DNA of 64,000 bases from Candidatus Rifleibacteriota bacterium (GTDB taxonomy: Bacteria; Muiribacteriota; Ozemobacteria; Ozemobacterales; Ozemobacteraceae), in the NCBI GenBank assembly GCA_015232575.1, contig JADFZL010000003.1:192001-256000 (forward strand), read 5' to 3'. The position numbers and the translations under genes were made by a program. This document shows, one piece after another, positions 4,382-26,132 of the stretch; position 1 is the stretch's first letter; each line of letters begins with the position of its first letter. The notes under the pieces are model-generated. The model did not search any database. It saw only the letters and a program-made list of their open reading frames with translations, and was not told the origin of the DNA.

Positions 4382-4401
4382 TTCGCCTGGAGGGCGATAA
4401 T

Positions 4402-4638
4402 TTAAACATTCCAGACATGAATTTCTTCGAATTCAACATTGTTATTATTAAAAATTGCTAATGAAGCTTCTTTGTTTTTTGAATCTATGCAAATGGCAAC
4501 TCCGCAATCAGAGCTGAATTCTCTAGGTGTTGGAATAGTTTCGAATGATATGCCAACCGATTTAAGAGCTTTTTCAGCTTTTAATGCAAAATAACTTGAA
4601 TAAAATGTGAAAACAATTTTCACTTTTTGAAAATCCAA
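4402..4638 (-). CDS. DUF3343-family small protein (selenium/sulfur-metabolism associated)
   Basis: 78 aa with a conserved SSDCG motif. Paralogue of 16222..16473. Lies between csd and selD. Confidence 0.6.
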   Translation of the reverse strand: MDFQKVKIVFTFYSSYFALKAEKALKSVGISFETIPTPREFSSDCGVAICIDSKNKEASLAIFNNNNVEFEEIHVWNV

Positions 4639-4699
4639 CTTTCATTTTTTTGCATGTGATTTTACTTTGCTTTTTTAATTTGTGATCTCATGCAAGCAT

Positions 4700-5848: not shown

Positions 5849-5880
5849 TGTATAGGAATTTTCATAATATGAATTCAACC

Positions 5881-6023
5881 CCTTGTAACGATTTCAGATT
5901 CATTGTCTTCCAGAGTGCATTACTGCATTTTGCTGTCATTTCGACCGAAGGGAGAAATCTCGTATTTTCTACCTGATCTGACCTTTCGGAGATATCTCTC
6001 TTTGGTCGAGATGACAAAAATAG
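5881..6023. repeat. Intergenic palindromic repeat (MITE-like family), copy B (full length with TIRs TGTCATTTCGACCGAAGG / CTTTGGTCGAGATGACA)
   Basis: Terminal inverted repeats and internal palindromes read directly. Matches copies A, C and D. Confidence 0.7.
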
Positions 6024-6044
6024 TCCGCTAGAATGGCGTTAATT

Positions 6045-6263
6045 TCACTGATTTTTCAGGAGAAGTTTGAAAGTGTCGTCTGATGAATCAAGCATTTCAA
6101 CTTTCCAACCTTCTTTATTGGACATTCTGGAAACATTCTCAACGGCTGCTTCTGAATCAACAATTACTTCAATTTCGCCCGTTTTCATTTCTCTGATTTT
6201 TTTCAGGGTTATGAGTACTGGTTGTGGGCAGGAAAGCCCTCTGGCATCAATTAATTCAGGCAT
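6045..6263 (-). CDS. yedF: TusA-like sulfur/selenium carrier YedF (short form, CPxP motif)
   Basis: GLSCPQP motif. 72 aa. Adjacent to yedE. Confidence 0.75.
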   Translation of the reverse strand: MPELIDARGLSCPQPVLITLKKIREMKTGEIEVIVDSEAAVENVSRMSNKEGWKVEMLDSSDDTFKLLLKNQ

Positions 6264-7359: not shown

Positions 7360-7362
7360 CTT

Positions 7363-9321: not shown

Positions 9322-10724
9322 CTCTCGAAAACGGCTTTTTCGATGATTGATGCGATATATGGAATATCGTCCTCGTCGATTGTAAGTACATCAAAAACCA
9401 GTTCGCCCTGCCTGAGTATTCCCAGTATAGGCTTTTCAACGTTGAGAAGGTTGTGAAAAACGCGCGTTGCAAAGTCAGAGCGTTTCTGTTGAGACTTTTC
9501 TGACGAAGAAATTACAACGCCGAAACTTTTAATTTCAAGGTCGGGAAGGGTGCCACCGCCGCATTTTCCGGTAGTTTCAATTATTTCGGAAGAAATATTT
9601 TTTTCCTGCAGTTTATCATACAACAGTTTGGCTTTCTGATGGAGCTGTTTGTCGGTAGAATTCAGCATGGCAAATAGAGGAAGATTTTCTGCTATTTTCT
9701 TTTCATCCAGATAACACCTGGCAACGCTTGTCAATGTAGTAATGGTAAGCTTACAGACTCGTAAAGCCCGCATCAGCGGAGCTTTACTTAATCTACCAAC
9801 CAGATCTTTCCGTCCGCAGATTATTCCGGATTGCGGTCCACCGAAAAGTTTGTCGCCGCTGAAGAGAACCAGGTCAACTCCGCTTGATAAGGCGGACTTT
9901 ACATCGGGTTCATTTGAAAGCGGTATATTTTCCGGCTTGTACAAGAGTCCCGAACCGATATCATAAACGACAATCATTCCCCTTTTTTTTGCAAGTTCGA
10001 CAAGATCATCAAGTGACACTTCTTCAGTGAAACCATTGATCGAATAATTCGATTTATGCGCCTTAAATAAAATTTTTGTGTCGGCGGTAATAGCATTTTC
10101 ATAGTCAGAAATTCGTGTTCTGTTTGTTGTTCCGACTTCAATCATTTTTGCGCCTGAAGTTCCCATGATATCAGGAATTCTGAATGAACCGCCTATTTCT
10201 ATTAATTCACCGCGTGAAACAATGACTTCTTTATTTTTTGCAAGAGTACTTAGAGTTAATATGAGTCCGGCAGCGTTATTATTTACCACCAGAGCTTCTT
10301 CTGCGCCGGTAATATACTTTAGAATGGAATTAACATGTACGCTTCGGCTTCCACGGGTACCAGTTTCAAGATTCAATTCAAGGTTGGAATATCCGGACAG
10401 TGTTTCTGTGAGTTCTTCAAATATTCTTTTCCCGATAGGTGCTCGGCCAAGGTTTGTATGAATCAGAATTCCGGTAGCATTTATAACCCTGCGCAGAGAA
10501 GGACTGGATATATCTTTCGATACCTTTATAGCTTCTTCGATAATTTCATCTGAGCCTGGAACATCATCAAACTGATCATCAAGAATGCTTTTTCTAAGGG
10601 AATCAAGTGTTGAACGAAGCGAATGTTTAATTGTTTCAGAACCATATAAAGCGACTGCCGCAGATATTTTTTCATCCTGCAGAAGCTTATCAACGCCCGG
10701 AATCAATCGGAGTTTCTCTTTCAT
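9309..10724 (-). CDS. selA: L-seryl-tRNA(Sec) selenium transferase SelA
   Basis: SelA hallmark NATGILIHTNLGRAP; PLP-enzyme. Likely start ATG 10724 (MKEKLRLIPGV). Overlaps the selB start. Confidence 0.85.
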   Translation of the reverse strand: MKEKLRLIPGVDKLLQDEKISAAVALYGSETIKHSLRSTLDSLRKSILDDQFDDVPGSDEIIEEAIKVSKDISSPSLRRVINATGILIHTNLGRAPIGKRIFEELTETLSGYSNLELNLETGTRGSRSVHVNSILKYITGAEEALVVNNNAAGLILTLSTLAKNKEVIVSRGELIEIGGSFRIPDIMGTSGAKMIEVGTTNRTRISDYENAITADTKILFKAHKSNYSINGFTEEVSLDDLVELAKKRGMIVVYDIGSGLLYKPENIPLSNEPDVKSALSSGVDLVLFSGDKLFGGPQSGIICGRKDLVGRLSKAPLMRALRVCKLTITTLTSVARCYLDEKKIAENLPLFAMLNSTDKQLHQKAKLLYDKLQEKNISSEIIETTGKCGGGTLPDLEIKSFGVVISSSEKSQQKRSDFATRVFHNLLNVEKPILGILRQGELVFDVLTIDEDDIPYIASIIEKAVFERWRT

Positions 10725-10786
10725 ATTTTCCTGAAAATAATTAAATGCAGTCAATTATTGAATGATTGCATTTCAATAAAAATCAT

Positions 10787-10878
10787 CAGAGAGGGCAGGA
10801 ATCGAACCTGCCACAGACGGTATTATCCGCCCGCTACTGGTTTTGAAGACCAGCTGAAACACCAGTCCCGTCCTCTCC
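10787..10878 (-). tRNA. selC: tRNA-Sec (selC), anticodon UCA
   Basis: Reverse complement reads GGAGAGGACGGGACUGGUGUUUCAGCUGGUCUUCAAAACCAGUAGCGGGCGGAUAAUACCGUCUGUGGCAGGUUCGAUUCCUGCCCUCUCUG. It has a CUUCAAA anticodon loop, a long variable arm, a GGUUCGAUUCC T-loop and a ~92-nt length typical of tRNA-Sec. It lies immediately upstream of selA. Confidence 0.85.
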
Positions 10879-10972
10879 ATGCTTGTCTGTTAAGCGGACA
10901 AAATACTAAATGAAAAGAAACAAAAAGTCAACGAGTATTTTAATAATGAATTGAAAGCTGAATCATGGATTA

Positions 10973-12103
10973 TTATTCTGCGTGAATAAATGTTATCAAT
11001 TCATCGGCGTGATGAAGTTCTTTTCCCGAAGCATCATAGACTCTGAATCCATCGGTATAAATGGGTGCACCCGATTTGTCAAGGTCAAACCATAGCACAT
11101 GGTTTCCAACAGTTTCCTCTGTACCATCTGGCAATAATTTCTTCAGTTTCCACTCACGACTCACAGCCACTTGTCTACCTTCTTTTTTTGCGACTTCGAG
11201 AGTGTTTACGAGTTGTCCATGAATGATTTTATTTGAAATATCAATTTCCTGAGATTCCGCACCACCGGCGGTCATAAGTGGTTTTTTGCCAAAAATCAAG
11301 GAGAAAAGATTCAAAAAACCGAAGATTGCGACAACAATTCGATACGGGAACATAATAAGATCTTTCAGTATCTCAATGAAATTAGCTGGTTCCCCGGGTT
11401 TTTTATGCGGACGTTCAATATAGTACAAATTGTTGAGGTGGTCTCCTTTAGGAAGCAGATAATCAATGTCAGGATGCTCTTTGATCGGCTTTATATCACC
11501 ATTTGCAGTATTCAACATATAAATGGCGCAGGACGAACTACTTACAACATGTCCTTCGGGAGAGCGGGCAAGTCCGGATGTCTGATAATAGATGTAAGAG
11601 CCTTGAACCCAAGGATTCTCATCAATACAGTCCCCGGAAGTAATCACCCTGACATCTTTTCCTTCTTCGTTCATTTTAATCAGATGAATTGAAGCGTCAC
11701 GATTTACTTGCGTCGTGATTATCTTATTGTCTTCCTGAAGAAAAAATCCGTGAGGATCAAACTCTTCGCGATGAAACAGCCGAATCTCCTTATTTTCCCT
11801 GGTATCAAAGTAAAAAAGGCCCCGTGCTTTGCTCATTGCTAAAATGTAATACAGGCGTTCTCCAGATTTCCAACAGGCTCTGAATTGAGGGCGACTGGAA
11901 GAAAATTGTTGCTGTCTGGCTCCCCACAAAAGGGACCTTGATACCAAAGCTTCCCCTTCTGAAGCTTCACCAGAAGCCTTCCATGACTGTTTCTCCCATT
12001 GCTTTTTCTCAATTTCTGCTTTTTCAATTGCGAAAGAGCTCAGAATCTCAGTATCGCTAGAATTCAGAATTTGAAAAAGGGAATTGTTTTTGATTACATA
12101 CAT
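10973..12103 (-). CDS. Hypothetical protein (376 aa)
   Basis: Long ORF with no recognisable motifs; possibly a beta-propeller-like fold. Confidence 0.4.
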   Translation of the reverse strand: MYVIKNNSLFQILNSSDTEILSSFAIEKAEIEKKQWEKQSWKASGEASEGEALVSRSLLWGARQQQFSSSRPQFRACWKSGERLYYILAMSKARGLFYFDTRENKEIRLFHREEFDPHGFFLQEDNKIITTQVNRDASIHLIKMNEEGKDVRVITSGDCIDENPWVQGSYIYYQTSGLARSPEGHVVSSSSCAIYMLNTANGDIKPIKEHPDIDYLLPKGDHLNNLYYIERPHKKPGEPANFIEILKDLIMFPYRIVVAIFGFLNLFSLIFGKKPLMTAGGAESQEIDISNKIIHGQLVNTLEVAKKEGRQVAVSREWKLKKLLPDGTEETVGNHVLWFDLDKSGAPIYTDGFRVYDASGKELHHADELITFIHAE

Positions 12104-12271
12104 GATTTACAACCTGACATTGAAATTGTTTTTTTCGAACCATCCAATTTGTGGTTTTCCCTCCCAAAAAAAAGACAACATGGGTCTTTAAAGAAAAAAC
12201 TGTGATTGTAAATAAATTTTCAAAAAAGACAATTGCTGTTGCGCTCATCAGCTAACGGTTGACATCTATTT

Positions 12272-12550
12272 TCATACCTTCCTTGCTTTACTTCGAAATT
12301 TGGGTGTTAGAAGCGGGATTAAGCATCGTAAAGCCCTATTCACAGATTCTGAATCCGGAAAATAGGTTAGAATATCTGGTTCAATAATTACTGCTCCTTC
12401 CTTTGGAAGCACCTCTTTTAAAACAGTAATACCGTCAGCCTCATGAACAGTTATAGTATAACCAGCTTGCATGGCTCTATGATGCTTGCCACGCACTCCA
12501 CCTGTAAAATCATATTCATCGCGGATTTTTGTATCCTCTATTTCCGTCAT
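12272..12550 (-). CDS. Putative BrnA-like antitoxin (partner of BrnT)
   Basis: 92-aa ORF starting at an ATG immediately after the BrnT TAA stop (TAAATG). This is the classic brnT-brnA order. Confidence 0.5.
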   Translation of the reverse strand: MTEIEDTKIRDEYDFTGGVRGKHHRAMQAGYTITVHEADGITVLKEVLPKEGAVIIEPDILTYFPDSESVNRALRCLIPLLTPKFRSKARKV

Positions 12551-12835
12551 TTAAATACTCCTTTCTTCATAAAATCTTCGCTCTGATGGGGTTGCCTTAC
12601 GGCAACTGATGATGCGTATTTGCGACTTGCGTTCAGTATAAACTACGACCAGCACGCGATTTTTGTCAGAGTCACCGATGTCAATAAGTCGCTGCTCAAC
12701 TTCCGAGTGATCAGGATCGGTCATCGTTATTGAAAAAGGATCAAGAAAGACCGTGGTCGCTTCATCAAAACCAACCCCGTGCTTTTTGAGATTCTTTTTG
12801 GCCTTTTCTCCATCCCATTCAAAGTTAATTTTCAT
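12551..12835 (-). CDS. brnT: BrnT-family toxin (DUF497, RelE/ParE-fold ribonuclease)
   Basis: 94 aa. The WDxxKxxxNxxKHGV N-terminus is characteristic of BrnT. Confidence 0.7.
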   Translation of the reverse strand: MKINFEWDGEKAKKNLKKHGVGFDEATTVFLDPFSITMTDPDHSEVEQRLIDIGDSDKNRVLVVVYTERKSQIRIISCRKATPSERRFYEERSI

Positions 12836-13265
12836 ATCAATACCTTAAAATTTTTCGGCTTTATTTCTTAATTGGAGCATCTGACAAAGCGGTCTATCCT
12901 TTTTACCAATGGGCCATAATCCTAAATTCTGATTCAAGATTTATTTTAATATTATAATCCTGGTGGAAAAAAGAATCAAGCAACTTGTTGTGAGACGCGA
13001 GCAAACGGAGCGACCTGTTGTATGAATACGGCTCTTTGGTCTCCAACCCTGGAACAATTGAAAGATGCTTATCATTGAAGGTGTATATTTAAACTCCGAG
13101 TCCAAAAACTGAGATTGAAATTTTCTGGACAAGAAGTTATACTATCGACGATCTGACCAACCTAAAGGTATTTTCCTGCCACTGAAATCAGCTTCGTTCA
13201 ACAAAAGCTAATAGTTAGCCTATCCGATGAAGTTTACGAATGTAGTTTAATAAAAGGAGGTTAGT

Positions 13266-13517
13266 ATGCCAAATGAAGCTAAAGTCTATCAACAGGATTT
13301 GATCAAGGAGATCAAATCTATTCCTCCAGAATATTTTCCCAATCTGTTACAAATGATTCGGATTTTTCGAGAAACTGCATTTTTCAACTCATTATCTCAA
13401 AAAAAAACAAGCATTAAACAAAATCGGTATCCATTGAGAGGTCTCCCATTTAAATATTTTGAACCAATGGAAGCCGTTGCCATTGATGATTGGGAGACAC
13501 TTTTAGATCGTACTTGA
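13266..13517 (+). CDS. Small hypothetical protein, possibly an orphan antitoxin-like protein
   Basis: 83 aa; RBS AAGGAGG upstream. No partner gene is evident. Confidence 0.3.
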   Translation: MPNEAKVYQQDLIKEIKSIPPEYFPNLLQMIRIFRETAFFNSLSQKKTSIKQNRYPLRGLPFKYFEPMEAVAIDDWETLLDRT

Positions 13518-13602
13518 CGTGATACCAGGTGAAAAAAAACATATGTAAAACGTAAAGTAACTGGACTAGCGTTTCTGTGAATGAACAAGCGCCTGTGATG
13601 AA

Positions 13603-13938
13603 ATGATCATTCACAATGGTCGGAAAGTTTTGAAAATGAAAATTATTTTGGCTCTTTCTGGTACAATTCATGGGTATTTTGCTGGTCTTCTTTCAACAGT
13701 GCTTTTTTTTGTATATCTTAAGAAGAAGGTTGAGCCGGTTGCGTTTATTATGGGACTTATGACAATAGCGCTCGTATACGGTTTTTGCTTTGTAATTTCC
13801 TTCGCTCTTGTTAAAGGCGGAAGCAGTCTATTTGGTTTTCAAAGCATGAATAATCAGGAGATTTTAAAATATACGGGTTGTTTTTTTCTTCCGGTGTGTT
13901 GCATTTTCAGCATCTACATTCATTTTTTTGGTAAGTAA
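13603..13938 (+). CDS. Small membrane protein, hypothetical
   Basis: Three predicted hydrophobic helices. Confidence 0.35.
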   Translation: MIIHNGRKVLKMKIILALSGTIHGYFAGLLSTVLFFVYLKKKVEPVAFIMGLMTIALVYGFCFVISFALVKGGSSLFGFQSMNNQEILKYTGCFFLPVCCIFSIYIHFFGK

Positions 13939-13945
13939 TCATCAG

Positions 13946-15133
13946 TTAGTTCCAGAGCCAACCTTTTTTTTCCCAAAGCTCGTGCATGAAATCCTGCCAG
14001 GGATAGATGCGAATGTTTTCTTCTTCTAAATGTCGGCAATGTGGTTCACAGGAAACTACAATCAGCTTCTTGACGACTTGTTCGGAACCCAGCTTTTTGA
14101 GACCATCTAAGTGGCGATTTGTAATTCGTTCGCTCGCTTTTACTTCGATACCCCAGCGTTTGCCTACGATGAAGTCCACTTCAACTTCACCTTTTTCAGT
14201 GCGCCAGAGACCGATTTCTGTCTGAGGTTCGAAATAGTCTAAAAAAGCACGTAATTCTAAAAAAATGAAGTGTTCAAAAAAAGATCCGAAATCAGAACTT
14301 GCTGGAACAATTTTTTCCAATCTGCGCAGGAATCTTACGACTCCCATGTCAGAAAGATAAAACTTCGAAGAACCAGCAGATTTCCGTTTGACTGAGGCAC
14401 GAAATGGTTGCAATTCAAAGCCCAGCATAGTGTCTTTGAGAATCTGAAAATAGTTACTCACGGTTTGTCGGTTTATGCCAGTATCGCTTGCAATTGATGA
14501 ATAATTCAATATTTGCCCATTGCAGGAAGCTGCAACCTCCAAAAATCGTGCAAATGATGGTAGATTTCTTACAAGTCCTTCTGCAGCAATTTCCTCGGTA
14601 AGATATTGTCCGACGTATGATGCAAGATCTTCATCCGGTAAGCGTGAAAGATAGTGTGGCGGAAGAGTGCCATTGTGAATTGCGTGTTTCAGATCAAAAT
14701 TGGGTAGTTCAGAACACGAGAATCCATGTAAATGACGCATTCTCGCACGTCCACCCAACAGATTAGAACCCGCTCGCTTTAGTTTGCGAGCGCTGGAACC
14801 AGACATTATAAATCTTGTATTCTTATTCTCAATCAGCCAGTGAATTTCATCCAGAAGTTCCGGAATTTTCTGTATTTCGTCAATAATTACCAGGCCGCTT
14901 TCGTTATTCGATGCCGCGAGACGCTCTCTAAGAAGAGTTGGGTTCCGCTGGAATTCAAGAAATTCTGCCCGATCAAGTAAATCAACGAATAAAACAGGCT
15001 TTTCGCTCAGTTGATGTTTAAGAAAAGATGATTTACCTGCTTGTCGCGGTGCAAAAAGAAAACAAGACCTGTCAAAAATAAGATCATCAATATTCAAGGA
15101 TCTTTTATAATAGGTTTTATTATTATTTCCCAT
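13946..15133 (-). CDS. AAA+ ATPase of the DUF4143 (COG1373) family
   Basis: Walker A (APRQAGKS), Walker B (LVIIDEIQ) and the C-terminal DUF4143-like region. Confidence 0.7.
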   Translation of the reverse strand: MGNNNKTYYKRSLNIDDLIFDRSCFLFAPRQAGKSSFLKHQLSEKPVLFVDLLDRAEFLEFQRNPTLLRERLAASNNESGLVIIDEIQKIPELLDEIHWLIENKNTRFIMSGSSARKLKRAGSNLLGGRARMRHLHGFSCSELPNFDLKHAIHNGTLPPHYLSRLPDEDLASYVGQYLTEEIAAEGLVRNLPSFARFLEVAASCNGQILNYSSIASDTGINRQTVSNYFQILKDTMLGFELQPFRASVKRKSAGSSKFYLSDMGVVRFLRRLEKIVPASSDFGSFFEHFIFLELRAFLDYFEPQTEIGLWRTEKGEVEVDFIVGKRWGIEVKASERITNRHLDGLKKLGSEQVVKKLIVVSCEPHCRHLEEENIRIYPWQDFMHELWEKKGWLWN

Positions 15134-15421
15134 TCTTTCTCCGTAAATATTAACATCATTTATGCAATCTATGTTAGCGCTTTTTCCGAAAAAATGCTAA
15201 CATAAATGTTAAAATAGTTAAAAAAAATAACAATTTATGTTAATCTTTTGATTGCAAGTGTTTGTTAAATTTGGATTATCAATGTAAGTTTGCATTTTTA
15301 CAGAGTTCCATGAGGGACTTTTGACTTTCCTGAAAAAGGATGATAAATTTTTTAGAAGAGCGTTAGGCTTTTCTGTATAATAATTTATTGTAAAAGAAAT
15401 CATCAGAAAAAGGACATTATT

Positions 15422-15631
15422 ATGAAATACGGTGCTAGAAACAAAATTGAGGCTAAAGTAAAGACGATTCAAAAAGGAGATATTATGTCTCTGGTCAAGT
15501 TTGACAATATTTCGGCGGCTGAAATGGCTTCTGTTCTCACAACCGAATCTGTTGAATACATGAATTTAAAGCCAGGCGACAAGATTGAGCTGGTAATAAA
15601 AGCAATTCATGTATTGCCAGTAAAAGAATAG
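15422..15631 (+). CDS. mop: TOBE-domain molybdopterin-binding (Mop-like) protein
   Basis: 69 aa. SARNxxxxxV-type TOBE fold start (GARNKIEAKV). Confidence 0.7.
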   Translation: MKYGARNKIEAKVKTIQKGDIMSLVKFDNISAAEMASVLTTESVEYMNLKPGDKIELVIKAIHVLPVKE

Positions 15632-15632
15632 C

Positions 15633-16247
15633 ATGGCAAAAACCGTTGATGCACGCGGATTAGCTTGTCCTCAGCCCGTTCTTCTGGCGAAAAAAGCCAT
15701 TGAGGAAAATGAGGAAGTCAAAATTCTTGTTGACAACGAGACAGCGGTTGAAAACATCCTCAGAATTGCTGCCAAAATGAACTGCAAGGTTCAAGTGAGT
15801 GAATCGCAGGGAAACACTCGGGAAGTAATGATAAAACGATCAACTGAAACATCTGTTTCAGTTATTGCTGAATCTGAAAAAGCGTGTATTGCAGATTCTG
15901 TGAAAAACAAGCGTAAGGTAGTGATTGTTTTGTCAGATAATTGTATGGGTAGGGGCGACGATCAATTAGGGGATATTCTGATTCGAAGTTTTCTGCATAC
16001 GATTTCAGAAATGTCTGTTAAACCAGCAAAGATAATATGCTACAATGCAGGTGTAAAGCTCGCAGCAAAGGGTTCGTCCGTAATTGATGACCTTCGCCGA
16101 CTGTCGGAAGTTGGGGTAGAAATTCTTGTTTGCGGAACCTGCGTTAAATTTTATGATATTGCCGATCAGATTGGTGTGGGGATTATTTCAAATATGTATG
16201 ATATTGCTGATTCTCTAACAAATGCAGATCATGTCCTCAAACCTTGA
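15633..16247 (+). CDS. yedF: Selenium metabolism protein YedF (long form: TusA-like N-domain + DsrE-like C-domain)
   Basis: N-terminal GLACPQP TusA motif and a C-terminal DsrE/DsrF-like domain. ~200 aa, matching the selenium-associated YedF architecture. Confidence 0.7.
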   Translation: MAKTVDARGLACPQPVLLAKKAIEENEEVKILVDNETAVENILRIAAKMNCKVQVSESQGNTREVMIKRSTETSVSVIAESEKACIADSVKNKRKVVIVLSDNCMGRGDDQLGDILIRSFLHTISEMSVKPAKIICYNAGVKLAAKGSSVIDDLRRLSEVGVEILVCGTCVKFYDIADQIGVGIISNMYDIADSLTNADHVLKP

Positions 16248-16493: not shown

Positions 16494-16544
16494 AAACAAA
16501 AACGCACAGGAATGAAACCTATTTCGTGTGCGTTTTTGTTTTAA
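16494..16544. terminator. Bidirectional intrinsic terminator (AACGCACA...TGTGCGTT flanked by A-run and T-run)
   Basis: Inverted repeat with flanking homopolymer runs, lying between the convergent DUF3343 (+) and fdhA-Cys (-) genes. Confidence 0.6.
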
Positions 16545-16553
16545 TGAAAAATG

Positions 16554-19235
16554 CTACGCTTTTTCCAGTTTACATGCGCAGACTTTGAATTCCGGGATCT
16601 TTGCTTCCGGGTCGAGTGCATTTATGGTCAGTTTATTGGCAGGGGCCTCTGAAAAATGGAAAGGCACAAAAGCCGTACCCTTGGGAATTCGATCTGTTAC
16701 GAAAGCTTTTGTTGTTATGTTTCCTCTGCGTGTTGTGACTTTTATGTTATCACTGTTAGATATTCCCAGACCTTTGGCATCTTCGACTGAAATCATTACG
16801 TGTGGACCTGCGAGATTATTCAGTCCCTCGGATTTTCTTGTCATGGTTCCGGTGTGGAAGTGCTGTAGAACTCTTCCTGTTGTAAGATAAACCGGATAAT
16901 CATTGTCAGGTATTTCTGCGGGGTTTTTGAATGGAATCGGAAACATTGCACCTTTGCCCCTGGTAAATTTTCCAATATGCAAAACAGGGGTTCCCGGATG
17001 CTCTTTTGTTGGACATGGCCAATGCAGGCCATTTCCAGCAAGCCGTCTGTAATCCATTCCTGCGTAGCTTGGAGTGCACTTTGCTAATTCATTAAAAATA
17101 TCTTCTGCTGAGTTATATTTCCAATTGTGACCCATTTTATTGGCCAGAAGTTGATGAATCTGCCAGTCATCCTTTGCTTCTCCGGGTGGCTCAACAGCCT
17201 TATATAATACTTGTACCCTTCTTTCTGTGTTGGTAAATGTACCAAGCTTTTCCGGCCACGTGGTAGCAGGAAGTACAACATGTGCAAGTTTTGCTGTTTC
17301 TGTAAGGAAAATATCTTGTACAACAAGAAAATCAAGTTTATTAAGACCAGCTTCGACATGATGAAGATCAGGGTCACTAAGCATTGGATTTTCACCCATG
17401 ATGTAGAAAGCCTTCATTTCACCGTTGTAAGCTTTGTCGATTGCTGTTGTAAGGGTCAATCCGTTTTCGGCACTAAGTTGACAACCCCAGAATTTTTCAA
17501 ATTTTTCTTTAATTTCGGGAAGGATAACTTTTTGATACCCTGTGTAAACAACAGGCAAAGCTCCAACATCGCAGGCGCCCTGGACATTTGATTGTCCTCG
17601 GAGAGGGTTAACTCCTCCGCCAATTTTTCCCATATTACCACAAAGCATTTGGAGGTTTGCACACGATTTTACATTATCCACACCTGTGGTATGTTGCGTA
17701 ATACCCATAGAATAGTATATTGCAGCTGTACCTGCTTTTCCAAACATCTGAGCAATTGCCTCAAGAGTTTTTGCAGGAATGCCAGAAATCTGTTCGACAT
17801 ACTCTGGAGAATATTTTTCAACCTCTGCTTTCAGTGCTTCATATCCTTCACATCTTTCGGCAATAAATTCTTTGTCTTCCCAACCGTTCTTTATGATGAC
17901 ATTCATAATTCCGTTAAGAACCGCAACATCTGTCCCAGGTCTTTGTGAAGCGTATATTTTTGCATAATTTGCCATTTTTATTCGTTTGGGATCAATAACA
18001 ATTATCTTCATTCCATCTTTTGCTGCTTTTTTGAGACGCGCACCAATAACCGGGTGTGTTTCGGAGGTATCTGAGCCGATAATAAGTGCAACATCACTTC
18101 TACCTATTCCAGCATAATCATTTGTCATTGCACCCGAACCAAAAGATAATGCCAGACCGGCAACTGTTGATGCATGGCACAATCGGGCACAATGATCAAC
18201 ATTGTTTGTACCGATTACGGTTCTGATGAATTTTTGAAAAGTATAGTTTTCTTCATTCGTTACTTTAGCGGATGAAAAGCCCATTATTGAGTTTGCACCA
18301 TTCTTTTGCTTAATATCAGTTAGCCTCGTTGCAATTATATCAAGAGCTTCATCCCAGGAGGCTTTTCTGAATGATCCGTCGTCAGTTTTGATCAGTGGAG
18401 TTGTCAATCTATCCTTATGATCAACAAAATCGTAGCCAAAACGTCCCTTTACACACAGCATACCGTTGTTAGACGGTGAGCCTTCCAAACCATTTACACG
18501 AACGATTTTGTTCTGTTTTGCATCAACATGAATTTCCATCTGACATCCAACACCGCAATAAGGGCAGACGCTGACGACTTTTTTTGTGTCCCAGTAACGC
18601 GCCATTCCTTTGGCTTTATTTTCTGTTATTGCACCCACGGGACAAATTTGAGAACATTCACCACACTGAACACAACTAGAATCACCCATTTTCTTGTCGT
18701 CATCAAAAATGACTTCTGTTCTGTGTCCCCTGTATCCAAAATTCAAAACATCGTTTGTAACAGTATTTTGACAGGCAGAAACACATCTTCCACAAGCGAT
18801 GCATTTGTTGCGATTAACCTGAAGAAATTCGGAACTATCATCAATATTCGGTTCAAAATCTGCATAATTCAGTGATGGCTTTTCAATGCCGAGATAATAA
18901 GCCGCATCCTGAAGTTCGCACTTTCCATTTTGCTGGCAGGCGATACAATCATGCGTTCCATTCGAAAGTAGAAGATCAATAACAAGTTTCTGCCCTTCCA
19001 AAGCTTTTTGTGATTTTGTCTGAATATTCATTCCTTCTTTAACAATCACAGAGCAGGATGTCTGAAGTCCTTTCATTCCTTCAACTTCCACGACACATGC
19101 ACGACATTTCCCTGCAACGCCCACCTTTTCGTGATAGCATAGAGAGGGAATATAAACTCCGTTTTTTCTTGCTGCCAGAAGAATGGTTTGTCCATCTTCA
19201 ACATTCAGTTTTTTTCCATTAATGAAAATTTGCAT
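16554..19235 (-). CDS. fdhA: Formate dehydrogenase catalytic subunit, Cys-containing paralogue (N-terminal 2Fe-2S/4Fe-4S NuoG-like module + Mo/W-bisPGD domain)
   Basis: 893 aa. N-terminal ferredoxin-like Cys clusters and the molybdopterin oxidoreductase core. The active-site segment reads VDHCARLCHASTVAGL, with Cys where the paralogue has UGA. RBS GGAGGAA. Confidence 0.85.
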   Translation of the reverse strand: MQIFINGKKLNVEDGQTILLAARKNGVYIPSLCYHEKVGVAGKCRACVVEVEGMKGLQTSCSVIVKEGMNIQTKSQKALEGQKLVIDLLLSNGTHDCIACQQNGKCELQDAAYYLGIEKPSLNYADFEPNIDDSSEFLQVNRNKCIACGRCVSACQNTVTNDVLNFGYRGHRTEVIFDDDKKMGDSSCVQCGECSQICPVGAITENKAKGMARYWDTKKVVSVCPYCGVGCQMEIHVDAKQNKIVRVNGLEGSPSNNGMLCVKGRFGYDFVDHKDRLTTPLIKTDDGSFRKASWDEALDIIATRLTDIKQKNGANSIMGFSSAKVTNEENYTFQKFIRTVIGTNNVDHCARLCHASTVAGLALSFGSGAMTNDYAGIGRSDVALIIGSDTSETHPVIGARLKKAAKDGMKIIVIDPKRIKMANYAKIYASQRPGTDVAVLNGIMNVIIKNGWEDKEFIAERCEGYEALKAEVEKYSPEYVEQISGIPAKTLEAIAQMFGKAGTAAIYYSMGITQHTTGVDNVKSCANLQMLCGNMGKIGGGVNPLRGQSNVQGACDVGALPVVYTGYQKVILPEIKEKFEKFWGCQLSAENGLTLTTAIDKAYNGEMKAFYIMGENPMLSDPDLHHVEAGLNKLDFLVVQDIFLTETAKLAHVVLPATTWPEKLGTFTNTERRVQVLYKAVEPPGEAKDDWQIHQLLANKMGHNWKYNSAEDIFNELAKCTPSYAGMDYRRLAGNGLHWPCPTKEHPGTPVLHIGKFTRGKGAMFPIPFKNPAEIPDNDYPVYLTTGRVLQHFHTGTMTRKSEGLNNLAGPHVMISVEDAKGLGISNSDNIKVTTRRGNITTKAFVTDRIPKGTAFVPFHFSEAPANKLTINALDPEAKIPEFKVCACKLEKA

Positions 19236-19262
19236 AAATTCCTCCAGTATTGTTATTTAATA

Positions 19263-19305
19263 ATGAAAAAAGACAAAACGGCATTAAGCATGCAGTTTTG
19301 TCTTT
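19263..19305 (-). promoter_or_regulatory. Terminator-like hairpin in the 5' leader of fdhA(Cys), ~30 nt upstream of its RBS (possible attenuator)
   Basis: The minus-strand RNA reads AAAGACAAAAC-ugcaugcuuaaugcc-GUUUUGUCUUUUUUCAUUAUU, an 11-bp stem plus U-run. The upstream ~600 nt is non-coding. Confidence 0.45.
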
Positions 19306-19912
19306 AAATTTTTTTGACAAAAAAGAACTACAAATACGAAAAAGTATTACTTTTTGTTTATTGGCGAGACCCGCCGTTTCGATAAGGTGATTCATAGCTT
19401 ACACCTTATAAAAACAGCATTTTTCAAGAACAACCTTACATTATTATTATGAAACATTTATATTGTACACAGAACAAAAGATTGAAGACATTAAAGTTAC
19501 CAGCGCAGAGGAGAGGTAACCGGTAATGATCTTTCCAATTTATTGTTGTCGCCTGCTTTACTAAGTTAAAACCTCTTATTAACTGAAATCTCTTTAATAG
19601 AATCGCAATTTTCATATTGTATAAACAGATTCAAAAGTGTATGTACGAATTTTATAACCCGAATTTACGGAAAAGTCAAATTATCTGATCATCTTTTCAT
19701 GCAATTCGTATTACCACATTCCCTGTTACAGGTATCATTGATTCATCAAATAATTCAATCTGGAAAAAACTTTTTATAAACCTATCATGTAGTTCGTCAG
19801 ATTGTGCCTGAGACCGCGTTAGAAGAAGATTGTTGTACTCTACGGCTGAAAAGGTATTCTAAATAACCCATGATGATAGAAACTCTGAATAAAAAATTAA
19901 GCATTTAATTGA

Positions 19913-19950
19913 AAAAAACACAGGAAGTGCTTTCCTTCCTGTGTTTTTTA
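19913..19950. terminator. Bidirectional intrinsic terminator downstream of fdhA(Sec)
   Basis: AAAAAACACAGGAAG-tgcttt-CTTCCTGTGTTTTTT. Confidence 0.65.
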
Positions 19951-19971
19951 AACTAATGGCTAATGAAAATA

Positions 19972-22656
19972 CTATGCTTTTTCCAGTTTACATGCGCAGA
20001 CCTTGTATTCCGGTATTTTTGCTTCCGGATCAAGTGCGTTAATGGTTAGTTTGTTGGCAGGAGCTTCGATGAAGTGGAAAGGCATAAAAGCAGTTCCTTT
20101 AGGAATTCGCTTTGTAACGAAAGCCTTAGTGGTAACGCTGCCGCGGCGGGTTGTTACTTTAACGGTTCCACTGTTTGAAACGCCTAGTTCAACGGCATCT
20201 TCTACTGAAATCATTACATGAGGTCCGGCAAGATTATTCAATCCTTCGGATTTTCTTGTCATGGTTCCGGTGTGGAAGTGCTGTAGAATTCTTCCGGTTG
20301 TCAGATAAACCGGATAGTCTTTGTCGGGTAATTCAGCGGGATCTTTGAATGGAATTGGGAATAATGTCCCTTTTCCCTTGGTGAATTTACCAATATGAAG
20401 AACAGGAGTACCAGGGTGTTCTTTTGTTGGACATGGCCAATGCAGACCTTTTCCTTCAAGTCTTTTGTAATCTAATCCGGCATAGCTCGGAGTGCATTTG
20501 GTCAATTCATCAAAGATATCTTCTGCGGTATTATATTTCCAGTTGTGACCCATTTTATTGGCCAGAAGTTGATGAATCTGCCAGTCATCTTTTGCTTCCC
20601 CGGGTGGTTCAACGGCTTTGTGCAACAATTGTACACGGCGTTCAGTATTAGTGAAGGTACCAAGTTTTTCGGGCCATGTACTGGCAGGAAGTACAACATG
20701 TGCCATTTTAGCTGTTTCCGTAAGGAAAATGTCTTCGACAACCAGGAAATCAAGCTTTTTGAGGGCTTCTTCAACATGGTGAAGATCTGGATCACTCAGC
20801 ATCGGATTTTCACCCATAATGTAGAATGACTTTACTTCTCCCTTGCCAGCTTTGTCTATGGCAACTGTAAGCGTTAATCCATTTTCAGCACTGAGCTGAC
20901 AACCCCAGAACTTTTCGAACTTTTCCTTGATTTCAGGAAGTGTAACTTTCTGATAAGCAGTGTAAACGACTGGAAGTCCGCCAACGTCACATGCGCCCTG
21001 GACGTTTGACTGTCCACGCAGCGGATTAACACCACCACCAACTTTACCCATATTGCCACAAATCATTTGCAGATTTGCACAAGATTTAACATTGTCAACA
21101 CCAGTGGTGTGCTGGGTAATGCCCATTGCGTAATAAATCGCTGCTGACTTTGCTTTTCCAAACATTTCTGCAATTGCTTCGAGGGTTTTTGCCGGGATAC
21201 CAGAAATCTTCTCAACGTGCTCAGGAGTGTATTTTTCTACTTCTGCTTTCAACGCTTCAAAACCTTCACATCTTTCAGCGATGAATTCTTTGTCTTCCCA
21301 GCCATTCTTGATGATTACATGCATAATTCCGTTAAGAACAGCAACATCTGTACCTGGTCTCTGAGCGGCATAGATTTTGGCGTAATCTGCCATTTTAATT
21401 TGTTTGGGATCAATAACAATTATTTTCAACCCATGTTTTGATGCCTTTTTCAAGCGGGCAGCAATTACCGGATGGGCTTCAGATGTATCGGAACCAATTA
21501 TTAGAGCAACTTCACTTTTACCAACTCCTGCGATATCATTTGTCATAGCTCCAGAACCAAAAGATGCGGCCAGACCGGCCACAGTGGAGCTGTGTCATAA
21601 TCGCGCACAGTGATCGACGTTATTCGTCCCTATCACTGTGCGAAAGAACTTTTGAAAAGTGTAGTTTTCTTCGTTTGTAACTTTTGCTGAAGAAAAACCC
21701 ATTAAAGAATTTGGACCATGTTTTTGTTTAATTTCAGAAAACTTTGTCGCTACTAATTCAATTGCTTCATCCCATGAAGCTTTTCTGAAAGAGCCATCAT
21801 TGTTTCTGATTAAAGGTGTAGTAAGTCTTTCCTTGTGATCTACAAAGTCATATCCAAAGCGGCCTTTTACACAAAGCATACCGTAATTGGATGGGGCGCT
21901 TTCAACGCCGTTGACCCGGACAATCTTGTTGATTTTCCGGTCGACATGAATTTCCATCTGGCAACCTACACCACAATAAGGACAAACTGAAGTCACTTTG
22001 TCAGTTTCCCAGTAACGCGCCATTCCTTTTGCTTTTTTCTCAGTTATTGCGCCAACTGGACAAATCTGAGAACATTCACCACACTGGACACAGGTGGAAT
22101 CACCCATCTTCTTGTCATCATCAAAAATGACTTCAGTGTTGTGTCCTCTGTAACCAAAATTCAAAACATCGTTTGTAACAGTATTCTGACATGCAGAAAC
22201 GCATCTTCCACAAGCGATGCACTTGTTTCGATCGACCTGAATAAATTCTGAGCTGTCATCAAGATTCGGTTCAAAATCAGCATAGTTCAATGAAGGTTTT
22301 TCAATGCCAAGATAATATGCGGCATCCTGAAGTTCGCACTTGCCGTTTTGCTGACAGGCAATACAATCGTGCGTTCCATTAGAAAGCAGAAGATCAATAA
22401 CAAGTTTCTGACCATCCACAGCTTTCTGGGATCTCGTCTGAATCTTCATTCCCTCTTTCACAATTACTGAACAGGATGTCTGAAGACCTTTCATCCCTTC
22501 AACCTCTACTACGCAGGCTCGGCATTTCCCTGCCACGCCAACCTTCTCATGGTAACAAAGAGAAGGAATATAAATTCCATTTTTCCTTGCGGCCTGAAGA
22601 ATGGTTTGCCCTTCTTCAGCCTGCAATTGCTTGTCATTGATGGTAATTAGCATCAA
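19972..22656 (-). CDS. fdhA: Formate dehydrogenase catalytic subunit, selenocysteine-containing (UGA-Sec at 21597..21595); the track shows it as two ORFs
   Basis: ORFs 21595..22656 and 19972..21582 are in the same frame, separated only by TGA. The joined translation VDHCARL-U-HSSTVAGLAAS aligns with the Cys paralogue's VDHCARL-C-HASTVAGL. A SECIS-like structure follows the UGA. Confidence 0.85.
21541..21594 (-). ncRNA. SECIS-like stem-loop immediately 3' of the fdhA UGA
   Basis: The RNA reads CACAG-CUCCA-CUGUG, then a 7-bp stem AGCUCCA...UGGAGCU enclosing GGCC-GGUCU-GGCC. The equivalent region of the Cys paralogue lacks this complementarity. Confidence 0.5.
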
Positions 22657-22763
22657 TCCCTCCTTTGAAGAATTTTCAAAAATTCACCTGTAAGTTATAA
22701 AATCAATATTTACCAGCTTAAAGAATAATTCTAACGCAATTTCGACATCGATCACCTGTTCGC

Positions 22764-23450
22764 TTAGGATATACAGCCTGTCAGATCAGATTTCGAAAGA
22801 GCATATTTAAAAAATACTGACCTTGTGTTAAAAGAACCGCTATCTGAATTATCGACTGCAAAATTATAATCTTGTGGTACATTTATATTGAAAAGTATTT
22901 TTTCCCAGTCCATGTCAGAATTGCGAGCATCATATTCTTTGACTGAAACTTCAGAAAAAATAGACCTGATTGAAAACAATCCTGCACTTATAGCTTTATG
23001 CGTTGCAGGGAGACAATTCGTTGAATAAAGCGAAAACAATGGATTCAAACCACCGATAGTTCTTGGAATCACAACATCCATTTTTTCAGAAATACTCAGA
23101 AGAAAGGACGCAGCAGATTCTGAAATAAATGGCATGTCACAACCTGCAAGAAGAGCATAATCAGTATTTACATGATCAAGCCCGGTCATAAGCCCTCCCA
23201 GAGGTCCAGTGCAGAGGCGATCTTCAATGAAGTTAAAACCATCATTTTCTGGAAACTTTTCTCCTTCTGGAAAGCCAACAATATGAACTCTCTGGGTAAA
23301 ACAGGCAAGTTTCTTTGCGACATATAACCACATAGGAAAGCCTTGCCAGGACAGGAACTGTTTTTTTCTCCCCATTCTGATACTTTGTCCACCGACAAGC
23401 AAAAGTGCTTCAATTGGCAATCGGCAGTTTTTTTCATTTGTATCAGTCAC
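22764..23450 (-). CDS. mobA: Molybdenum cofactor guanylyltransferase MobA-like
   Basis: LLVGGQSIRMG motif typical of MobA. 228 aa. Confidence 0.7.
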   Translation of the reverse strand: MTDTNEKNCRLPIEALLLVGGQSIRMGRKKQFLSWQGFPMWLYVAKKLACFTQRVHIVGFPEGEKFPENDGFNFIEDRLCTGPLGGLMTGLDHVNTDYALLAGCDMPFISESAASFLLSISEKMDVVIPRTIGGLNPLFSLYSTNCLPATHKAISAGLFSIRSIFSEVSVKEYDARNSDMDWEKILFNINVPQDYNFAVDNSDSGSFNTRSVFFKYALSKSDLTGCIS

Positions 23451-23533
23451 TTGTTTTGTCCATCACTTTAATATTTCGAGTTACAGAAAATTCTAACATA
23501 ATCAATAATTAGTGTCAAAAAAGAACCCGGAGC

Positions 23534-24331
23534 TCATGAAACGCGCCATGAATGTGTATAAACGTTGAACCGTTCTCCTCTTGTAAAACCAATGGTAGTA
23601 AGATTAAGTGAATCAGCAAGCTGCAATGCTCCGGAAGTTGGTGCTGAAGGAGAAATTAGTATGGGAAATTTACCTCTGACCGCTTTTGTAACAATTTCTG
23701 TGCTGATTCTTCCTGTTTCCAGCATTATCGCTTTTGAATCTGATGGCCATCTGTTTTGCAGTTGCCACCCCAGAACCTTATCAACAGCATTGTGTCTGCC
23801 TATATCATCACAGACGAAAAGAATGTTATCGTTTTCAGCAATGGCAGCTGAGTGAACTCCGCCCGTTTTCCTGAAAGTAGATGATGCATTCTGAAGTTTT
23901 TTAACCAGTGAAAGAACTACATCTGAAGATATTCTTACATCAGATTCTATTTTCTGAAAAAATTTTGAATATATCGGAGAAACGGTAGTTAAACATCTAC
24001 CACAGCCTGTTGCGACAGATCGTACTGAATTAAAAAGATTTCCCTGTAAGCCTTCTTTCAGTATAATCTCAATCGAATTTGTCCGTTCGGAATAATTAAC
24101 ACTGTTAACGTCGCTCAAATTTTCTATTATACATTCACTGAAAAGAAATCCCAGTGCAAGCTGTTCTATGTAAGTCGGATTATATATAAGACGTGCAATT
24201 TCATTTCCGTTTACAAAAACAGCTAAAATACTTTCTTTTATTATCAGATCATCAATTTGAGAAAATTTTCCATTTTCAAATTTTTTTGCCTGATAATTCT
24301 CTATTGCAAATTCACTGCATTTTTCAACCAT
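23534..24331 (-). CDS. fdhD: Formate dehydrogenase accessory sulfurtransferase FdhD
   Basis: FdhD family signature (GGVHSAA...DIGRHNAVDK). Confidence 0.8.
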   Translation of the reverse strand: MVEKCSEFAIENYQAKKFENGKFSQIDDLIIKESILAVFVNGNEIARLIYNPTYIEQLALGFLFSECIIENLSDVNSVNYSERTNSIEIILKEGLQGNLFNSVRSVATGCGRCLTTVSPIYSKFFQKIESDVRISSDVVLSLVKKLQNASSTFRKTGGVHSAAIAENDNILFVCDDIGRHNAVDKVLGWQLQNRWPSDSKAIMLETGRISTEIVTKAVRGKFPILISPSAPTSGALQLADSLNLTTIGFTRGERFNVYTHSWRVS

Positions 24332-24357
24332 TACATGAAGCCCTTGTCGTTAAGGTT

Positions 24358-24402
24358 TTCCCCTCTCAAGCTGCCTAATGGTGAGCTTTCTTGAGAGGGG
24401 AA
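24358..24402 (-). other. Perfect 13-bp inverted repeat (TTCCCCTCTCAAG...CTTGAGAGGGGAA) between fdhB and fdhD
   Basis: Read directly. There is no U-run, so it is more likely an intra-operon stabiliser or processing hairpin than a terminator. Confidence 0.5.
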
Positions 24403-24413
24403 TGTGAAAATAC

Positions 24414-26132
24414 TTATTTAATCAATGCTTCAAATTCATGTCTGAACTTTTGGACCATCGCTTCGATTGGCATTGCAAAAGCATCACCAAGCGGACATAG
24501 AGTAAGCCCTTTTATTTTTCCGCACATTTTTAGAATTGTGTCAATATCAGACTTTGAGCCGTTACCATGAAGAATTCTCTTGATAAGAGCTTTTACTGTG
24601 CTGGAACCTTCGCGACATGGTGTGCATTGACCGCAGGATTCGTGTGCATAGAATTCAATAGTGCGATATGCAACTTCGGGAATCGAAACAGTATCATTAA
24701 TAACCATGATTCCGCCAGAACCAAGCATTGTTCCTGCCTTCTGGCAACTGTCATAATCCATCTTCAATTCGTTAATTTCGGAAGCAGTCAAGATCGGTAC
24801 AGAAAGACCACCAACGATTACACCTTTAATTTTGCCTTTTACTCCGCCTGCTGCATCAAGAATTTTCTTAAGCGGTGTTCCAAGTGGGAATTCAAATGCT
24901 CCCGGTTTATTTACATGGCCACTTACACCATAAATTTTGGGGCCGTAATTACCGACAGTTCCGATCTTTTTGAATTCATCTGCGCCTTTTTCAATGATAA
25001 CCGGTACCAGAGCCAAAGATTCGACATTGTTGATAATGGTTGGACATCCATATAGGCCCTGAATTGCAGGGAAAGGTGGCTTGAGTCTTGGATTTCCACG
25101 ATTTCCTTCAAGGGATTCCATAAGCGCGGTTTCATCACCACAAACATAAGATCCTGCGCCTTTGTGAACTATAATTTCAACGTGCTTCAATAATCCGGCA
25201 TCTTTTGCCTGTTTAACTGCTTTTTCAAGAATATCGGCTATCCACCTGAATTCGCCACGTATGTATATGAAAGATTTTTTTGAACCTATAGCGTATGCTG
25301 ATATAGCGATGCCTTCAATAAGAAGATGCGGATCATATTCCATTATCTGTCGATCTTTGAATGTGCCCGGCTCTCCTTCATCTGCGTTGCAAATCAAATA
25401 AACTGGTTTTGTGTTATTCTTTGGAAGAAAGCTCCATTTCAAGCCTGTCGGAAAACCTGCTCCACCTCGACCTCTAAGCTGTGCATCTTTTACCATGGAA
25501 ACAATTTCAGCGGGTTCAATCGTCAGGGCTTTTTTCAAAGCCTCATATCCGCCATTTTTTTGATATACAGCCAAGTCAGTTGCTTTCTTATTTCCGCGAT
25601 TTTTAAGAAGGACATTACATTCAGATGCAAAAACCGATTCATCAACCTTTTCAGGGACTTTTCCCTTCCTGAGTTCTGCGATGATTTTATCAATTTTTTC
25701 GGTTGTCATGTTTTCATAGTAGATATCATTGATTTGTACAACCGGGCATGTCCCGCATGAGCCCAAATCCTGAACTTCTGTCAAAGTAAAAAGTCCGTCA
25801 GAAGTTGTTTCTCCGGGTTTTATTCCAAGTGAAGTCTTGAGGTGATTTAAGATTTTGTCGGAACCAGCCAGAAATGCAGGAATGTTGACATCAACCTGAA
25901 TATGAAATTTTCCGATTGGTTTGGTATTAAACATTGTGTAAAAAGTGGCAACCCCAAACGCTTTTCCTTCTGTAACGCCAATCTGGGTTGCAACTTCCTG
26001 TATCATTTCAGCTGACAGATGATTTCCGTTATCTCTCTGTGCAAGATCTAAAGCCGGTATCAATGCAGAAATACGGCTTGGGTAGCTATTTGCAATTGAA
26101 TCTATCTTTTCTCTAACGCTTGTATTCATCAA
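24414..26132 (-). CDS. fdhB: Formate dehydrogenase NAD(P)H-binding subunit (fused NuoE-like thioredoxin-like 2Fe-2S + NuoF-like FMN/NAD/4Fe-4S)
   Basis: 572 aa with NuoE-like N-terminal and NuoF-like core motifs (GRGGAGFPTG, CGQCTPCREG). Confidence 0.8.
   Translation of the reverse strand: MMNTSVREKIDSIANSYPSRISALIPALDLAQRDNGNHLSAEMIQEVATQIGVTEGKAFGVATFYTMFNTKPIGKFHIQVDVNIPAFLAGSDKILNHLKTSLGIKPGETTSDGLFTLTEVQDLGSCGTCPVVQINDIYYENMTTEKIDKIIAELRKGKVPEKVDESVFASECNVLLKNRGNKKATDLAVYQKNGGYEALKKALTIEPAEIVSMVKDAQLRGRGGAGFPTGLKWSFLPKNNTKPVYLICNADEGEPGTFKDRQIMEYDPHLLIEGIAISAYAIGSKKSFIYIRGEFRWIADILEKAVKQAKDAGLLKHVEIIVHKGAGSYVCGDETALMESLEGNRGNPRLKPPFPAIQGLYGCPTIINNVESLALVPVIIEKGADEFKKIGTVGNYGPKIYGVSGHVNKPGAFEFPLGTPLKKILDAAGGVKGKIKGVIVGGLSVPILTASEINELKMDYDSCQKAGTMLGSGGIMVINDTVSIPEVAYRTIEFYAHESCGQCTPCREGSSTVKALIKRILHGNGSKSDIDTILKMCGKIKGLTLCPLGDAFAMPIEAMVQKFRHEFEALIK

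Follow-up and report, generated by a model that had tools for sequence, protein, structure and literature searches.

How would a bacterium that carries both a selenocysteine (Sec) and a cysteine (Cys) form of one enzyme know when to make the second? How prokaryotes sense selenium for switching between such enzymes is an open question (PMC11097638, PMC3892789), and it arises in concrete form in a 64,000-nucleotide (nt) stretch of DNA from Candidatus Rifleibacteriota bacterium (GCA_015232575.1, contig JADFZL010000003.1, positions 192,001 to 256,000), referred to here as the window. Two paralogous formate dehydrogenase genes, fdhA-Sec and fdhA-Cys, follow one another on its minus strand, separated by an AT-rich spacer (32% GC) of 736 nt (19236..19971). 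Close upstream of the ribosome binding site (RBS) of fdhA-Cys this spacer contains a terminator-like hairpin, T2, and upstream of T2 lies a small reading frame that runs through it. We suggest that T2 acts in transcription attenuation gated by translation of this upstream open reading frame (uORF), a reading that we consider possible, if somewhat short of probable. Coordinates in the spacer and leader refer to the minus (mRNA) strand.

A predicted terminator before fdhA-Cys

fdhA-Cys (19235..16554) begins at AUG 19235 behind the Shine–Dalgarno (SD) sequence GGAGG (19245..19241) and encodes 893 amino acids (aa). An earlier note on this DNA had taken its product for a Cys-type FdhA, which is borne out: the protein reads CARLCH at the codon where the upstream paralog fdhA-Sec (22653..19972) has an in-frame TGA (21597..21595) accompanied by a canonical selenocysteine insertion sequence (SECIS). 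The note had also found no open reading frame (ORF) of at least 60 aa in the leader. This holds over 19236..19971 in all frames, where the longest ORFs have 59 aa (19615..19436) and 58 aa (19395..19219).

T2 (19305..19266) is a hairpin of 11+4 base pairs (bp) with a U-run. In its outer stem AAAGACAAAAC (19305..19295) pairs with GUUUUGUCUUU (19279..19269), and an inner GCAU/AUGC stem carries the loop GCUUA. The hairpin folds at −17.4 kcal/mol, with z-scores from −5.0 (66 nt) to −7.0 (49 nt) and none of 200 shuffles folding as well, and its repeat pattern has a chance expectation of 0.01 per window. The 11-bp stem and the six U (19271..19266) had been described before as successive elements; both are present, although three of the U already belong to the stem, which ends 33 nt before AUG 19235 and 23 nt before GGAGG, the U-run being only 20 nt from the SD. 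The core of T2 is thus better described as an 8+4-bp stem, GACAAAAC...GUUUUGUC, of −13.5 kcal/mol, followed by UUUUUUCAUU. Its strength equals that of the core of T1, the intrinsic terminator of fdhA-Sec (−13.7 kcal/mol), and exceeds that of T3, the terminator 3′ of fdhA-Cys (16541..16494, minus strand; −9.8 kcal/mol).

A census of hairpin and U-run sites revealed that the convincing intergenic terminators of the window have an A-tract/stem/U-tract design and lie 13–33 nt past stop codons. T2 shares this design and, as the definition of an intrinsic terminator requires, has a stable stem-loop directly followed by a U-run, while standing 667 nt from the preceding gene with T1 in between. Judged by modelled fold energy, core strength and design, T2 is a real hairpin of terminator grade. 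T1 itself (19949..19913, minus strand; AAAAAACACAGGAAG-loop-CUUCCUGUGUUUUUU) lies 23 nt past the stop codon of fdhA-Sec, has perfect 15-nt arms and folds at −25.9 kcal/mol in context (z −5.75). It is predicted to end the upstream operon and so to insulate fdhA-Cys from it. The earlier note had treated all of 19236..19912 as leader of fdhA-Cys; the terminator does sit near the end of that interval, but T1 opens the spacer, so not all of it need be leader. A second hairpin of terminator style (AAACAUAGUUUUC...GAAAAUUAUGUUU followed by UUUU; 53925..53955, plus strand) lies elsewhere in the window between divergent genes, 199 nt before a gene start at 54154, and is a possible leader element.

The better candidate promoters of the spacer lie upstream of T2. 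The top sigma-70-like match (19679..19649) falls in a candidate promoter/operator region (19710..19644, minus strand) and combines TTGACT (19679..19674) and TAAAAT (19654..19649), agreeing at 10 of the 12 hexamer positions across a 19-nt spacer, as a consensus match only. A further sigma-70-like candidate at 19469..19440 agrees at 9 of 12. Promoter scans found no sigma-70-like site of at least 9/12 past T2. The only candidate overlapping or downstream of T2, TTGTCT-16-AACAAT, reaches 8/12 and was rejected, as its start would fall inside the SD; a sigma-54 promoter was likewise rejected, the sole GG-N10-GC match overlapping the SD and AUG.

That polymerase should nonetheless reach fdhA-Cys is suggested by its evolution. 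The two paralogs differ by a dS of about 1.5 with a dN/dS of 0.048, which indicates that fdhA-Cys is under strong purifying selection and functional. All outside relatives resemble the Sec copy about 2% more closely than the Cys copy, and by this comparison the Cys copy is an old lineage-specific duplicate retained by selection. A gene kept by selection must be expressed. With T1 upstream and no acceptable promoter in the 20 nt after T2, expression would require polymerase to pass T2. An attenuator is therefore the reading that we favour, on the strength of reasoning and not of a measurement. It is this argument, drawing on T1, the design of T2, the lack of a promoter after it and selection on the Cys gene, that supports the earlier proposal of a terminator between promoter and start codon.

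Reading frames and a SECIS-like hairpin upstream of T2

The last 200 nt before the gene also contain the elements of a possible gate. The structures, reading frames and SECIS-like motif described below, and their rarity by chance, were computed here. ORF-58 (19395..19219, minus strand; 58 codons) is the only ORF of the spacer with an SD, AAGGUG, placed 6 nt upstream of its AUG. It crosses the entire T2 and the SD of fdhA and stops at UAA 19221..19219, 14 nt inside fdhA-Cys. When T2 was held fixed and the 607 nt upstream were shuffled, an ATG ORF with a 5-nt SD crossed T2 in 0.47% of trials. The start of ORF-58 is enclosed in a second hairpin, P1 (19418..19373, minus strand; 8+8 bp), whose stem buries AAGGUG (19407..19402) and whose 12-nt loop holds AUG 19395 and a UGA that overlaps it. 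P1 folds at −19.7 kcal/mol (z −4.97), and none of 200 shuffles did as well.

The overlapping UGA (19394..19392), which forms A-UGA with the ORF-58 start, belongs to another frame, ORF-U (19457..19347, minus strand), which could begin at AUG 19457 or at UUG 19427 with AAGG 6 nt upstream and is described here as a frame only. It reads CKL-UGA(19394..19392)-ITLSKRRVSPINKK-UAA(19349..19347), and if the UGA is read through it ends 42 nt before T2. AUGA overlaps join five real gene pairs in the window, so restart at such a junction would be ordinary for this organism.

Downstream of this UGA lies a SECIS-like mini-hairpin, GGCG[GGUCU]CGCC (19375..19363, minus strand), with a loop identical to that of the fdhA-Sec SECIS. 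The latter, UGUGGCC[GGUCU]GGCCGCA (21583..21565, minus strand), is canonical and folds at −12 to −22 kcal/mol, the value varying with the span chosen. Across 41 distinct relatives the element has the form UGA-N12-GUNGCC[GGUCU]GGCNNC with an invariant loop, and its stem covaries, with 99% of cells paired and 14 double changes, a pattern that none of 500 shuffles equalled. With a covariance model built from these 41 FdhA relatives we scanned both strands of the window (128 kb). The fdhA-Sec SECIS scored 58.7 bits, and the mini-hairpin was the third-best match, after the true SECIS and a remnant in the Cys gene. That remnant, UGCC[GGUCU]GGCA, follows the UGC codon of fdhA-Cys (18179..18144, minus strand; 25.1 bits) and is consistent with Sec-to-Cys conversion after duplication.

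Hairpins with a GGUCU loop and at least four Watson–Crick pairs number three on the two strands of the window, the other two being the fdhA-Sec SECIS and the fdhA-Cys remnant. Of dinucleotide-shuffled versions of the spacer, 0.33% contain one, and real related sequence totalling 1.6 Mb has 10 non-SECIS examples, which translates into 0.005 expected per spacer. The distance from UGA 19394..19392 to the loop is 20 nt, against 18 nt in fdhA-Sec and 19 nt in selD. A published bacterial SECIS model specifies a loop of 3–9 nt on an upper stem of 4–16 bp, a loop beginning with G[G|U], 16–37 nt between UGA and loop and an energy of −7.5 kcal/mol or lower (PMC13188914). The mini-hairpin agrees with three of these four points, having a 5-nt loop on four G-C/C-G pairs (the minimum), the GGUCU loop start and the 20-nt spacing. 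Three of its nucleotides also belong to the 3′ strand of P1, which makes the two hairpins mutually exclusive. T2 was also considered as a SECIS-like SelB site and rejected, its loop GCUUA not being of the G[G/U] type exemplified by GGUCU.

From these elements we hypothesize that T2 is an intrinsic terminator in the 5′ leader that would hold fdhA-Cys off unless polymerase is let through. The most likely gate would be translation of ORF-58 from AUG 19395, since a ribosome there would unwind T2. A ribosome translating ORF-U would open P1 and arrive at UGA 19394..19392. With selenium present, SelB and Sec-tRNA would decode the UGA, aided by the hairpin ahead, the ribosome would leave at UAA 19347, T2 would fold and the Cys enzyme would be off. 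When selenium is short, translation would terminate at the UGA and restart at the overlapping AUG, whose SD would have been freed from P1; the restarted ribosome would follow polymerase through T2 and end beside the fdhA start, and the Cys enzyme would be on. In a simpler variant, SelB on the SECIS-like hairpin would merely block initiation at AUG 19395, as in Escherichia coli selAB (PMC13449736). A logic of the trp 1:2/2:3/3:4 type, acting through the stop of ORF-U, was rejected as giving the wrong regulatory sign by our reading.

In this scheme we infer where transcription starts, that it terminates at T2, that SelB binds, and each step of the regulation. Each of the gate features occurs in fewer than 0.5% of shuffles, and the presence of selB, selA, selD and tRNA-Sec in the window counts in favour of a selenocysteine gate. 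By analogy, the regulatory sign also matches the known behaviour of Sec/Cys isoenzymes (PMC3892789, PMC11097638). The earlier note had allowed for a selenium-responsive element of a new kind in this leader. The UGA, the SECIS-like hairpin and the uORF give that suggestion a concrete candidate, with the difference that it would work through translation and not through ligand binding.

Several observations weigh against this interpretation and temper our confidence. The features were assembled after the sequence had been inspected, so their joint probability is optimistic, and placement of the promoter and transcription start rests on consensus matches only. If an SD is not required, an ATG ORF through T2 arises in 20% of shuffles. 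The AUG of ORF-U lacks a good SD. The SECIS-like hairpin is a local match of 7.1 bits that is not significant (E 2.9 window-wide, about 0.02 on the spacer strand alone); its stem of only 4 bp folds at −6.4 kcal/mol, short of the −7.5 kcal/mol of the published model (PMC13188914), and P1, which is far more stable, competes with it. A weak candidate antiterminator (19332..19291, minus strand), in which UGUAGUU...UUGUC pairs with GACAA-AACUGCA of the T2 5′ arm, is not significant: the hairpin reaches −8.4 kcal/mol, and the duplex reaches −11.1 kcal/mol against −7.9 ± 2.05 kcal/mol in shuffles, 72 of 1000 of which attain it. Finally, the element is a single sequence, and no relative that we found carries the spacer, hence it has no support from conservation or covariation. 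We therefore regard as doubtful the full selenocysteine-gated attenuator, in which the leader-ORF UGA and a minimal SECIS would sense Sec-tRNA and SelB and steer ribosomes at AUGA into the frame through T2, and hold uORF-gated attenuation at T2 in general to be the better founded proposal.

Alternatives to attenuation

The explanation that competes best is control by a protein, which we nevertheless consider unlikely. A DNA-binding regulator of selenium status would act at the spacer promoter, T2 would be a constitutive damper or insulator, and the UGA, the SECIS-like hairpin and the uORF would be there by chance. A suitable gene is at hand, since the selenium island of the window encodes a LysR-family regulator (2093..1164), and in Methanococcus maripaludis HrsM represses Cys-isoform genes (PMC11097638). 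A possible target exists as well: three AATTCG/CGAATT motifs (plus-strand starts 19703, 19660 and 19646) lie within 65 nt and flank or overlap the top-scoring sigma-70-like match, 19679..19649. Both promoter and operator are consensus matches only, however, and the explanation leaves unaccounted for the clustering of P1, T2, an SD-preceded uORF and a hairpin with a SECIS loop in the last 200 nt. Protein control is moreover compatible with attenuation and does not exclude it. The hexamers AATTCG/CGAATT occur 61 times in the 64 kb, or about once per kb, and the outer two of the three near the promoter form an 8-nt inverted repeat, TACGAATT/AATTCGTA, that may be an operator set.

Alternatively, T2 might end a separate small unit, either a small RNA (sRNA) of about 170–380 nt or the mRNA of a mini selenopeptide encoded by ORF-U (36 residues, C-x-x-U), with fdhA-Cys expressed by leaky read-through or from a weak promoter over T2. 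T2 does lie 42 nt past the UAA of ORF-U, which has an in-frame UGA followed at the right distance by a SECIS-like hairpin and, in CKL-U, the CxxU pattern. Sigma-70-like sites at 19679..19649 and 19469..19440 could start such a unit, and the weak match TTGTCT-16-AACAAT overlaps T2. Against this, the AUG of ORF-U has no SD, the peptide is very basic in the way typical of AT-rich noise, no Rfam family matches, and transcription from the weak promoter over T2 would begin within the SD. As fdhA-Cys would still have to pass T2, the explanation largely collapses into attenuation, and as a separate account we find it improbable.

A third possibility, which we rate as quite improbable, is that the spacer and T2 are debris, leftovers of duplication or insertion behind the Cys copy with no regulatory role. 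In its favour, the spacer is AT-rich and confined to this genome, and no homolog displays constraint on it. Using blastn, we found no match to it in 45 of the 78 related loci (L001–L045), in a plasmid collection or in the rest of the window. The absence of repeat copies elsewhere in the window also speaks against debris, as does the lack of detectable mobA, fdhD or fdhA homology that would mark a relic; a decayed mobA/fdhD, or a decayed copy of the fdhA Sec-codon region, was rejected for want of DNA or protein similarity above shuffles. At a paralog dS of about 1.5 the spacer should be saturated and neutral hairpins should have decayed, which makes the nearly perfect T2 and P1 unlikely relics.

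A ligand-binding riboswitch with T2 as its expression platform, responding to molybdenum or tungsten cofactor (Moco/Wco) or to a selenium compound, is very improbable: the terminator does stand just before the RBS, the enzyme does use a Mo/W cofactor and the last 216 nt (19440..19225) do fold somewhat better than shuffles (z −3.35), but neither the Moco RNA motif nor any other Rfam riboswitch matches even at E ≤ 10, the excess fold energy is accounted for in the models by two simple hairpins and not by a multi-helix aptamer, the antiterminator is weak, and the Sec paralog and all relatives lack such a leader. The Moco/Wco aptamer envisaged in the earlier note accordingly finds no counterpart among Rfam families. 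The Rfam comparison it had proposed returned only tRNA-Sec across the whole window at gathering thresholds, and at E ≤ 10 on 19100..20100 only snoRNA, miRNA and sRNA noise far below threshold.

Locus, relatives and significance of a selenium switch

Read along the minus strand, the gene order is NuoF/HydB-like gene (26132..24414), fdhD (24331..23534), mobA-like gene (23450..22764), fdhA-Sec, the 736-nt gap and fdhA-Cys. This arrangement departs from that of the clade. Scans of genome and metagenome contigs yielded 78 related loci, with best aa identities of 83% (to the Sec copy) among genomes and 80% among metagenomes. Every relative of at least 68% identity is a single-copy Sec gene, and a NuoF-like gene ends 12–40 nt ahead of it. 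Over 60 relatives have the Sec gene alone and lack the spacer. The direct succession of NuoF-like gene and fdhA-Sec, with this gap of 12–40 nt, is seen in more than 60 relatives, whereas here fdhD and the mobA-like gene are inserted between them (22657..24413) and the Cys paralog is added downstream. In a collection of 5.8 billion proteins, identity to FdhA-Cys drops to 66% at the next protein of Cys type and reaches 78% in the best-matching N-terminal fragment; the genes of the nearest Cys-type proteins (P0002, P0006) directly follow nuoF, without a leader. Two loci, L030 (12442..14688) and L056 (11442..12685), carry a further and more distant fdhA some 3.8 kb downstream. It is also Sec-type (CART-U-H), so paralog pairs in this clade are not always Sec/Cys.

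Adjoining the fdh operon is a compact selenium-utilisation island (1164..16247). Besides the LysR-type regulator gene, it comprises selD (about 4132..3086), a gene for a class-V aminotransferase/NifS-like lyase (5878..4700), a YedE-like transporter gene (Sulf_transp; 7359..6256), selB (9321..7363), selA (10754..9309), tRNA-Sec (10879..10787; an Rfam match at the gathering threshold) and a TusA-DsrE (YedF-like) fusion gene (15633..16247). SelD is itself a selenoprotein: its gene has an in-frame TGA (4079..4081, minus strand) in the context TAAG-U-AAK, with the hairpin UCCAG[AGUUG]CUGGA 19 nt later, and ORF finders for this reason start the gene too late, at 4069. Between the sel and fdh genes lies a likely type II toxin–antitoxin pair (12272..12835, minus strand), consisting of a BrnT-family toxin (12835..12551) and an adjacent ORF of 92 aa.

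The attenuation that we propose resembles that of the trp, his and pheA leader peptides (PMC3892789) in having a short leader ORF with a codon dependent on a scarce charged tRNA, a terminator just before the gene, and folding decided by ribosome position. It would differ in its sensor, a single UGA read by SelB and Sec-tRNA instead of a run of sense codons, and in its output, a frame switch at AUGA with a ribosome crossing the terminator instead of a 2:3 antiterminator. According to the authors of PMC3892789, attenuation by a rare amino acid has so far only been built synthetically. In E. coli a SelB-bound SECIS-like element in the selAB 5′ untranslated region represses selAB (Thanbichler and Bock 2002, summarised in PMC13449736). 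The candidate described here is likewise a SECIS look-alike outside a selenoprotein gene, through which SelB-GTP-Sec-tRNA would report selenium to another gene. In E. coli 3 nt separate the element from the selA SD, and its repression of translation is direct (PMC13449736), while the leader hairpin has about 118 nt between it and the fdhA-Cys SD, so that it is not next to the fdhA RBS, and follows the uORF start by 20 nt; any effect must go via the uORF and T2.

Paired Sec and Cys formate dehydrogenase genes are also found in Treponema primitia, where selenium limitation raises fdhF-Cys transcripts and UGA/SECIS translation is coupled to transcript elongation (PMC3892789). What is coupled there is a truncation within the Sec gene itself, the mechanism acting on the Cys gene was left unresolved, the phylum and the enzyme subfamily differ from ours and no leader element is described (PMC3892789). 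HrsM of M. maripaludis offers a parallel in that the Cys isoform is shut off under adequate selenium, and a LysR gene is present in our window too; HrsM is an archaeal repressor protein of the LysR type that works at a promoter, and its selenium signal is not known (PMC11097638). Like the T2 leader, the Moco RNA motif (RF01055) stands upstream of a Mo/W-cofactor-related gene and may end in a terminator; unlike it, the leader has no match to this model at gathering thresholds or E ≤ 10.

The leader of fdhA-Cys could be a selenium-sensing switch, seen so far in only one genome. If this is true, it would be a compact and portable selenium-responsive switch of about 200 nt with clear targets for point mutation, and no cis-acting selenium sensor would have been described in bacteria before it. 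It would also add a new class of regulatory codon, and a new variant, to attenuation. Most directly for the biology of selenium, the machinery that decodes Sec would itself be the sensor, which would answer for at least one lineage the question of how a cell chooses between its Sec and Cys enzymes.

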